Below are positions 1,288 to 2,589 of a DNA stretch of 64,000 nt, piece after piece; within the stretch, counting starts at the first letter, position 1; the number at the start of each line of letters is the position of its first letter. The notes beneath the pieces were generated by a model. The model worked only from the letters and a program-made list of their open reading frames with translations, made no database searches and was not told the DNA's origin. The translations under genes and the position numbers were made by a program. This DNA comes from Escherichia phage vb_EcoM-VR5, in the sequence record NC_028881.1; one strand, given 5' to 3'.

Positions 1288-2589
1288 ATGACACAAACTA
1301 CAGGTGAAAAAGAAGGTGTATTTTACGGTTATTCTCTTTATGATTTGAATAAAGAAAAACTAATAACTTTTGACGAATTACTTACAGGTATTAAAGGAGA
1401 GCCTGGAGAAAATGGCGATATCGGGCCACAAGGAAACCAAGGTCCTGTAGGCCCCCAGGGTATTCAAGGGGATACAGGTCTTCAAGGAGTTCCAGGAGAA
1501 AATGGTGCTATTGGACCAAAAGGTATTCAAGGTGAAACAGGTGCTCAAGGTATTCAGGGACCACAAGGACTACAAGGAGACCCGGGAACGCAGGGTCCAC
1601 AGGGTATTCAAGGTCTAAAAGGAGATAAAGGCGACCAAGGTATTCAAGGTGAAACAGGTGCTCAAGGTATTCAGGGTATTCAAGGAGTTCCAGGTGCCAA
1701 AGGAGATATAGGCCCAGTCGGTCCTGCAGGTTTAACATGGAAAGGTTCTTGGAATATTGCAACTGCTTACGCAGTTAACGAAGCCGTTGGCCACGATGGA
1801 AGCCTATATTTCGCCACAGCTGAAAGCACCGGGCAAACTCCTTCATTAGGTAGCGATTACTGGGAAGTCTTAGCAACGGAAGGACCTGAAGGTCGGCAGG
1901 GCGTAGAAGGCGCGCAGGGTCCACAGGGTATTCAAGGTCCACAAGGTATTCAAGGACCTAAAGGTGATACGGGTGAAACTGGACTACAAGGTCTTAAAGG
2001 TGACAAAGGAGAGACAGGTTTAACCGGACCCCAAGGACTACAAGGTATTCGTGGCGAACAAGGAGAAACGGGCGCACCGGGTATTCAAGGTATTCAGGGT
2101 ATTGCTGGAGACCAAGGTCCTAAAGGTGACACGGGCGACAAAGGTGATACAGGTGCCACTGGTCCAGCCTACGAGTATAAAAAAGTATCTAGATTTACAA
2201 TGCCTGCCGCCGGTATATCAAATTCTACTCCTTTATTCGATTCAGGATTAACAATAAGTATGTTAGGCGTCAAAGCTAATACATTTAGATTTACCCTTAC
2301 TAATACAGGTTCAGCGTCTAGAGTTATTGATGGTGAAATAATTTATTTTGACCCGGACGGTACAGCAAAAAGATTTGTTGTTCATTTTTCAATAGCTGCT
2401 GGTGAGACAACCAATTTCGGTACGTACACGTATGCAATTACAACTCCCAGAGTTTTTACTTTAAATTTTAATGCTACTGGGACTACACAACACGCCCACG
2501 AAGTAAAATATTTTATAATAGGACGCGACGGTTATACGGAAAATACTTCTGTTGGTGCTACTGTTACTATTGAAAAACTCTATAACTAA
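1288..2589 (+). CDS. collagen-like (Gly-X-Y repeat) protein with non-collagenous C-terminal domain
   Basis: 433-aa ORF with two long uninterrupted G-X-Y tracts (about 37 and 31 triplets) separated by a 70-aa spacer, then a 150-aa Thr/Phe-rich domain; start preceded by AACGGGGGA. Confidence 0.85.

Follow-up and report, generated by a model that had tools for sequence, protein, structure and literature searches.

Near the start of a 64,000-nucleotide (nt) stretch of Escherichia phage vb_EcoM-VR5 (NC_028881.1), referred to here as the window, a gene for a long collagen-like protein is followed immediately by a gene for a second, shorter paralog of the capsid decoration protein Hoc, which we call Hoc2. 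The window is from a T4-like phage of the Dhakavirus/Gaprivervirus group, with 93% identity to VR7 and 93.5% identity to ESCO10 over the matched parts. This two-gene insert recurs as a unit in ~25 T4-like phages, and the N-terminal type of the collagen-like protein agrees with the type of the immunoglobulin (Ig)-like part of Hoc2 in every case. We give roughly even chances to a model in which the collagen-like protein is a late-expressed, trimeric fiber of ~65 nm, its N terminus docked on Hoc2 and Hoc2 bound at the centers of capsid hexamers. An initial annotation of the locus had proposed an extra fiber or decoration module on the virion surface; comparative genomics supports that proposal as an inference from sequence, and several details of the locus had been described incorrectly. 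The module comprises the following features.

1288..2589, + strand: collagen-like fiber gene, 433 amino acids (aa), ATG start
1288..1386, + strand: N-terminal 'type A' module, aa 1-33, proposed virion-proximal anchor
1387..1737, + strand: collagen tract 1, 39 G-X-Y triplets, ~33 nm if triple-helical
1738..1881, + strand: CBM5/12-like interruption domain, aa 151-198 (48 aa, LTWKGSWN...YWEVLA), separating the tracts
1882..2169, + strand: collagen tract 2, 32 G-X-Y triplets, ~27 nm if triple-helical
2170..2586, + strand: C-terminal 'C1' domain, aa 295-433, all-beta sandwich, proposed to serve in trimerization and as ligand-binding tip
2590..2598, + strand: 9-nt spacer GGACTACAA between the collagen TAA and the Hoc2 ATG, carrying a GGA-containing Shine-Dalgarno sequence for Hoc2
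2599..3417, + strand: Hoc2, 272 aa, two Ig-like domains ('type A') and a Hoc C-terminal capsid-binding domain
3418..3437, no strand assigned: GC-rich palindromic hairpin AAAGGGCC-GCAA-GGCCCTTT, terminator-like, between the convergent Hoc2 and hoc genes

The 433-aa open reading frame (ORF) with two perfect Gly-X-Y tracts that had been reported in the initial annotation was borne out. A regular-expression search placed the uninterrupted runs at aa 34-150 and aa 199-294; the earlier counts of ~37 and ~31 triplets were correct in treating the tracts as uninterrupted but fell short of the actual 39 and 32, and the 48-aa domain between the tracts had been missed. The longest G-X-Y run in 2000 mononucleotide shuffles of the ORF was 4, the two tracts are the only ones of such length in the window, and the two alternative frames of the ORF are interrupted by 21 and 33 stops. 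A profile search confirmed the collagen family, with the protein matching Pfam Collagen (PF01391) at E=4e-36 and 123 bits against a cut-off of 27.2 bits. Glutamine occupies the Y position in 18 of the 39 triplets of tract 1 and 13 of the 32 in tract 2, and the proline content is modest, with proline at X in 8/39 and 7/32 triplets, respectively. The stalk lengths given above are based on the textbook collagen rise of 0.286 nm per residue. At 139 bits against a cut-off of 500, the protein did not match the NCBIfam collagen adhesin families (Lcl, Scl) at cut-off; the matches are confined to the repeats, and membership in these families was rejected.

The frame of the collagen gene is intact in the window, ESCO10, VR25/26, JS10, CLB_P2, and other phages. 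Length differences between the window gene and its relatives all preserve the reading frame, at 99 nt for VR7 and 63 nt for ESCO10, and indels among the relatives are multiples of 9 nt. Tract 1 contains 39, 50, or 38 triplets among the relatives including the window (50 in VR7), tract 2 contains 32 triplets in the window versus 39 in ESCO10, and the domain architecture is kept down to ~30% identity. The intact frame and in-frame variation in repeat number therefore indicate a real, selected gene. Similarly, because the G-X-Y tracts are present in independently sequenced relatives with length differences that preserve the frame, they are not a sequencing artifact, a possibility that the initial annotation had raised. 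In the VR7 record (NC_014792), a T-run close to the 3′ end of the collagen gene, gp196 (locus L001, ~4740-4870; alignment columns ~1285-1295), contains one T too many, which leads to annotation of a wrong 427-aa C terminus and a false gap of 127 nt before gp197.

Outside the tracts, the protein has three distinct parts. The type A N-terminal module is identical in VR7, ESCO10, and VR26, and conserved in Kosakonia phage 305, CR3 gp011, and P0006. The middle domain matches Pfam CBM_5_12 (PF02839) with E=0.0046 and 17.4 bits, under the cut-off of 26.2, while the homologous middle domains of the CLB_P2 protein pass that cut-off with 26.4 and 27.8 bits. With a profile built from four such middle domains, the best matches in the PDB were the carbohydrate-binding module (CBM) of 3wx7 and the chitin-binding domain 1ed7 (E=0.003-0.016). 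These similarities suggest that the middle domain is CBM5/12-like, with carbohydrate binding a putative activity. The C1 domain is very rare: an exhaustive HMMER search of 1.84 billion representatives found it in six proteins, and a word-indexed search with the C-terminal domain returned one fragment only. No function can be transferred to C1. The domain does not match the C1q/TNF jelly-roll fold of C1q/TNF-like or BclA-like trimeric domains. Across nearly its full length (aa 1-424) the fiber protein matches PHROG 5073, 'tail fiber protein' (E=1.5e-111), a label that represents annotation and not tested function.

The gene that begins 9 nt downstream of the collagen gene had been annotated as Hoc-like and equated with hoc. 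The first part of this assignment is correct, with matches to PHROG 1149 (E=2e-57) and to the T4 Hoc chain 5vf3_Z (E=4e-29), but the hoc ortholog is a different gene, at 3442-4545 on the − strand. The C-terminal domain of Hoc2 aligns to T4 Hoc residues 262-366 (E=1.5e-22), including the sequence QESRNG (encoded at nt 3364), which has been described as the most conserved region of contact between Hoc and gp23 (PMC10385173). Its aa 3-76 align to Ig domain 3 of T4 Hoc (E=3e-5), and its length fits two Ig domains, with a weak match to Pfam Ig_2 (E=0.0046). Hoc2 and the resident Hoc are 29% identical overall and 48% identical in the C-terminal domain. By these comparisons, 2599-3417 encodes a second, shorter Hoc paralog and not the hoc ortholog. 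Presumably, canonical Hoc and Hoc2 share a binding site on the capsid.

Pairs of a collagen-like gene and a second Hoc gene have been annotated in many T4-like phages. In VR7 the collagen gene is gp196 ("collagen triple helix repeat domain protein") and the Hoc gene is gp197 ("Hoc-like"). The pair is also annotated in VR25/26, ESCO10 (as a "host specificity protein"), CLB_P2, dhabil, JS10, IME08, and Kosakonia phage 305, as well as in Aeromonas phage 65 (where ST65p147 is described as 'similar to collagen-like proteins' and hoc-2 as a 'second copy of the hoc gene'), further Aeromonas phages, and the Erwinia phages FBB1, IT22, and Cronus. The fiber protein of the window is ~89% identical to that of VR7 and ~78% identical to that of ESCO10, with 98-99% identity in the Ig part of Hoc2. 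By alignment, the collagen gene of the window thus belongs, as a near-identical member, to a family that has been annotated before. This partly fulfils a condition that the initial annotation had itself named as counting against its proposal, namely that the locus is a known conserved gene in close relatives.

The two genes are tightly linked. Related loci were recovered with an alignment as query, and a search with Hoc2 alone gave nothing. The collagen gene lies directly 5′ of Hoc2 on the same strand in 19 inspected phages, which represent at least six genera and at least four genomic contexts. Most coliphages have 9 nt between the two genes; over all inspected phages the interval varies from -8 to +29 nt, with the stop and start overlapping by 4 or 8 nt in Aeromonas phages and Erwinia FBB1. 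The sole exception to adjacency is IME08, where the collagen gene follows gene 24b, ~1.5 kb from Hoc2. In the IME08 record (NC_014260), positions 3723-3935 encode a type-B N-terminal module (MVDETLFGHDGRGNF...) out of frame with the annotated gp169, and the collagen gene of this phage is either frameshifted or split. The pair occurs in the gap between 24.3 and hoc, directly after gene 24 in the Erwinia phages, near tk in Aeromonas phage 65, and in a different region in other Aeromonas phages. These four contexts indicate that the pair moves as a unit.

Both proteins of the pair can be classified by type, with A and B denoting N-terminal types of the collagen protein and, separately, types of the Hoc2 Ig part. 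The type A collagen N terminus is ~33 aa long and is found in the window, VR7, ESCO10, VR25/26, and Kosakonia 305. The type B N terminus is ~64-86 aa long with the core LFGHDGRGNF.G..L, and is found in CLB_P2, dhabil, JS10, ABTNLsp5, TH15, Esco_phi_B-01, and IME08, in three Aeromonas phages (GomatiRiver_11, AS4, and 65), and in the Erwinia phages FBB1, IT22, and Cronus. Types A and B of the Hoc2 Ig part have no detectable similarity to each other, and within each type identity across genera is 31-34%. With tblastn, strong type A Hoc2 Ig matches were confined to six phages (VR7, ESCO10, KIT01, VR25, VR26, and Kosakonia 305), and type B was found in 24 records from ~18 phages. In type B Hoc2, mean column identity is ~0.39 in the distal Ig domain 1 versus ~0.28 in domain 2. 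A minimal Hoc2 of 166 aa, consisting of Ig domain 1 and the capsid-binding domain, occurs in Cronus (L035, 4785-5285) and IT22 (L046, 3501-4001), still directly 3′ of a type-B collagen-like gene.

The C-terminal domain of the collagen protein is encoded between the two matched parts and has nevertheless been swapped independently of them. At least four unrelated-looking types exist: C1 in the window, VR7, and ESCO10; C2 in VR26, Kosakonia 305, JS10, and Esco_phi_B-01; C3 in CLB_P2, CGG4-1, and the Aeromonas and Erwinia phages; and C4 in IME08 and in CR3 gp011, the latter having no Hoc2 partner. C2 is combined with type A in VR26 and Kosakonia 305 and with type B in JS10, and C4 with type A in CR3 and type B in IME08.

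Signals upstream of the pair are consistent with late transcription.

1206..1259, + strand: mini-ORF of 17 aa (MPDILERKDLLYIPLVP*), whose ribosome-binding site and start context taacatgggatttttaacttgtaaacaggagttttATGCCAGAT match those of the type-B collagen gene in CLB_P2/dhabil
1258..1265, + strand: AATAAATA, putative late promoter matching the T4 late promoter TATAAATA at 7/8 positions, ending 22 nt 5′ of the collagen ATG
1279..1284, + strand: Shine-Dalgarno-like GGGGGA, 3 nt before the collagen ATG

As the initial annotation stated, no exact TATAAATA is present upstream of the collagen gene; the near match AATAAATA is conserved in VR7, ESCO10, and VR26, and Kosakonia 305 has CATAAATA at the equivalent position. 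In IME08, Cronus, and IT22, the collagen gene is directly 3′ of the late gene 24. We found no sigma-70-like promoter on the + strand directly upstream of the collagen gene, and saw no MotA-box TGCTT in its upstream sequence. The hairpin 3′ of Hoc2 is conserved in VR7, ESCO10, VR26, and CLB_P2. The collagen gene and Hoc2 are therefore likely to be co-expressed late, given AATAAATA, CATAAATA, or the late gene 24 upstream, and conservation of the 9-nt spacer and the hairpin. The mini-ORF at 1206-1259 is probably a scar of cassette replacement, type A having taken the place of type B at this locus.

A head-fiber module is supported by the close coupling of the collagen gene and Hoc2, which holds in different genera and at different genomic locations, and by the co-variation of N-terminal type with Hoc2 type; the cassette also sits in the head-gene region. 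In this module, the 433-aa protein would form a trimer, nucleated by the C-terminal beta-sandwich domain, with two triple-helical stalks of ~60 nm together that are joined by the small CBM5/12-like knot. Like T4 Hoc, Hoc2 would use its conserved C-terminal domain to bind at the center of gp23 hexamers, and its short Ig-like arm would provide the docking site for the collagen N-terminal module. The virion would thereby carry long, flexible capsid fibers. Their exchangeable distal domains, perhaps together with the CBM-like knot, could attach reversibly to glycans on surfaces or to other ligands, and this reversible binding would raise the chance of meeting a host. T4 Hoc forms a fiber of 18 nm, and the proposed collagen fiber would be several times longer. 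More tentatively, we propose a general two-component head-fiber system in several T4-like genera, in which a Hoc paralog serves as a non-covalent adaptor for exchangeable collagen fibers of ~65 nm, the fibers compete or mix with Hoc, and two incompatible specificity types, A and B, exist.

Several observations weigh against this model. The matching of types may stem from two lineages of the cassette, each passed on as a linked unit, and not from co-adaptation, and among type B pairs a mirror-tree comparison showed no correlation between divergence of the collagen N terminus and that of the Hoc2 Ig part (Spearman 0.15, p=0.37). The type-A N terminus also occurs beside tail-fiber/neck genes in CR3 gp011 (Vequintavirinae) and in P0006, a related metagenomic contig, with no Hoc-like sequence detectable within 5 kb of either. 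Hoc is a monomer at a quasi-sixfold site and the collagen fiber would be a trimer, so that contact between them would have to be asymmetric. A Rosetta-stone search for fusions of collagen with the Hoc capsid-binding domain gave short fragments only, CLB_P2-type cassettes lack a late-promoter-like motif immediately upstream, and we found no proteomic, electron microscopy, or genetic data for any carrier in the literature.

The main alternative, which we judge unlikely although it is the strongest, is that the collagen protein is an accessory tail, baseplate, or neck fiber and Hoc2 an independent head decoration, the two being neighbors through a shared accessory cassette. The locations of CR3 gp011 and P0006 fit this alternative, as do the tail-fiber labels of PHROG 5073 and of most collagen-containing phage homologs, and a conserved N terminus with a swappable C terminus is the architecture of a receptor-binding fiber. 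Collagen motifs in phages have classically been assigned to tail fibers (PMC4621102). However, within the Straboviridae the collagen gene is never in the tail-fiber cluster, and the window copy is between 24.3 and hoc. In this family the gene is always joined to a Hoc paralog as an operon, in many cases with stop and start codons that overlap, and the two relocate jointly. This alternative also fits poorly with an N-terminal type that tracks the Hoc2 type although the intervening C-terminal domain has been shuffled.

A direct interaction of the collagen trimer with the capsid, or with some other site on the head, while Hoc2 is co-regulated but physically separate, seems improbable. In two reports, SPP1 gp12 is described as a trimeric collagen-like auxiliary protein located at the centers of capsid hexamers (PMC5292684, PMC7602432), and this precedent makes decoration of a capsid by collagen physically plausible. 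The position of the cassette in a head-gene neighborhood agrees with such an arrangement. However, searches with Pfam, PHROG, and NCBIfam profiles detected no Hoc-like or other known capsid-binding domain in the fiber protein, direct binding leaves the strict A/A and B/B matching unexplained, and hexamer centers would already be occupied if filled by Hoc or Hoc2. Slightly less probable again is that Hoc2 is an assembly factor or tip-binding partner of the fiber, or that the fiber is a non-virion product released at lysis. Genes directly 3′ of phage fiber genes often encode chaperones or adhesins, with T4 gp38 and the Tfa proteins of lambda and P2 as examples. Against such a role, the capsid-binding domain of Hoc2 is intact, with QESRNG, and Hoc2 type follows the N terminus of the fiber and not its C-terminal tip. 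Finally, an assembly or sequencing artifact, or a decaying pseudogene, for which the frameshifted copies in the VR7 and IME08 records might speak, is effectively refuted by the comparative data on frame, indels, and architecture given above.

The proposed head-fiber module can be compared with several known systems. The pairs of VR7 (gp196/gp197), VR25/VR26, ESCO10, JS10, CLB_P2, and Aeromonas phage 65 are orthologous cassettes; the VR7 copy differs from that of the window in having 50 instead of 39 triplets in tract 1 and in the frameshift of its record near the 3′ end, where the window is intact. T4 Hoc has three Ig domains whereas Hoc2 has two, and their Ig parts are weakly similar. Unlike T4 Hoc, Hoc2 is encoded behind a collagen-like gene, and the window carries a canonical hoc as well. 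The likeness to SPP1 gp12 is functional only, and the window protein differs from it in its 433 aa, 71 triplets, CBM-like insert, beta-sandwich tip, and proposed Hoc-type adaptor. The proline-poor triple helix suggests by analogy that decoration could be temperature-dependent, as reported for SPP1 gp12. Several carriers have been described as low-temperature phages.

Fibers of the PHROG 5073 type, including CR3 gp011 and fibers of lambdoid phages and actinophages, share with the window protein the succession of N-terminal module, G-X-Y stalk, CBM5/12-like knot, second stalk, and variable C terminus, and CR3 gp011 shares the type-A N terminus, with 47% identity over aa 1-260. Their genes belong to tail-fiber/neck clusters and have no Hoc paralog, whereas the window gene is in a head cluster and coupled to Hoc2. 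The Lcl and Scl1/Scl2 adhesins likewise present a globular domain on hydroxyproline-free G-X-Y stalks; the window protein differs from them in having no LPXTG or signal-peptide context. Collagen proteins with a type-A N terminus are also encoded in phiTE/rV5-like myoviruses, at 2412-3275 of L011 (Logan SRR29026051 contig) and 4992-6362 of L007 (CR3), immediately 5′ of head-tail adaptor, head-completion, tail-terminator, and sheath genes, which bears on the anchor hypothesis.

As far as we found, the conserved, type-matched pairing of collagen protein with Hoc2 and the adaptor model are apparently undescribed. Our literature search found no functional study of the cassette and no paper linking the collagen-like protein to a Hoc paralog. 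A survey of Hoc proteins from 2023 noted that second, shorter Hoc proteins exist, without mention of collagen, and that the Hoc C-terminal domain has been used to display other modules (PMC10385173). The phiTE paper describes an unassigned third fiber and an unresolved protein at the hexamer center and does not mention collagen. Hoc is the textbook case of a capsid decoration that the phage can do without, and it is in wide use as a platform for display. If the model is correct, recruitment of a separate, long collagen fiber by a Hoc paralog would be a new way to functionalize the T4-type head, and would add to the tail fibers a second, capsid-borne layer of adhesion to the environment or host. 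Such a layer would be relevant to host range, adherence to mucus and surfaces, and phage engineering with swappable tips on a fixed adaptor. At a more routine level, the analysis corrects mis-annotation in databases, where "tail fiber protein" and "host specificity protein" are labels without evidence behind them.

The module is flanked by the following genes.

up to ~817, − strand: rnlB
925-1149, − strand: gene 24.3 ortholog (Pfam DUF2774, E=4e-30), aligning with gp24.3 of VR7 and MX01
3442..4545, − strand: canonical hoc ortholog, 367 aa, adjoining inh, in synteny with T4 hoc-inh-uvsW
4572-5255, − strand: inh
5311-6807, + strand: uvsW

The T4 order is rnlB-24.2-24.3-hoc-inh, without the insert, and gene-order comparison confirmed the earlier statement that T4 has no gene of this kind between rnlB and hoc. 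The insert is also missing from some Dhakaviruses, among them MX01. The ORF at 925-1149 had been read as a helix-turn-helix-like ORF placed divergently upstream, a reading that did not hold: homology identifies it as the conserved backbone gene 24.3, outside the inserted module. Gene 24.2, which in T4 and VR7 lies between rnlB and 24.3, is absent from the window at ~817-925. Two exact TATAAATA motifs, at 5275-5282 (+) and 5289-5296 (−), are found in the 55-nt gap between inh and uvsW, partly back-to-back and each facing one gene, with a spacing to the genes like that of AATAAATA. Kosakonia phage 305 (5425-7355) has the collagen gene and a type-A Hoc2 with no canonical hoc beside inh, and Hoc2 would be its sole Hoc. 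Giant Hoc proteins of 1174 and 1107 aa are encoded in T4-like contigs from IMG/VR (L022, 2280-5804; L028, 2460-5783), with no collagen gene within 5 kb of either; these proteins are consistent with the 1174-residue Hoc described for Muldoon (PMC10385173).

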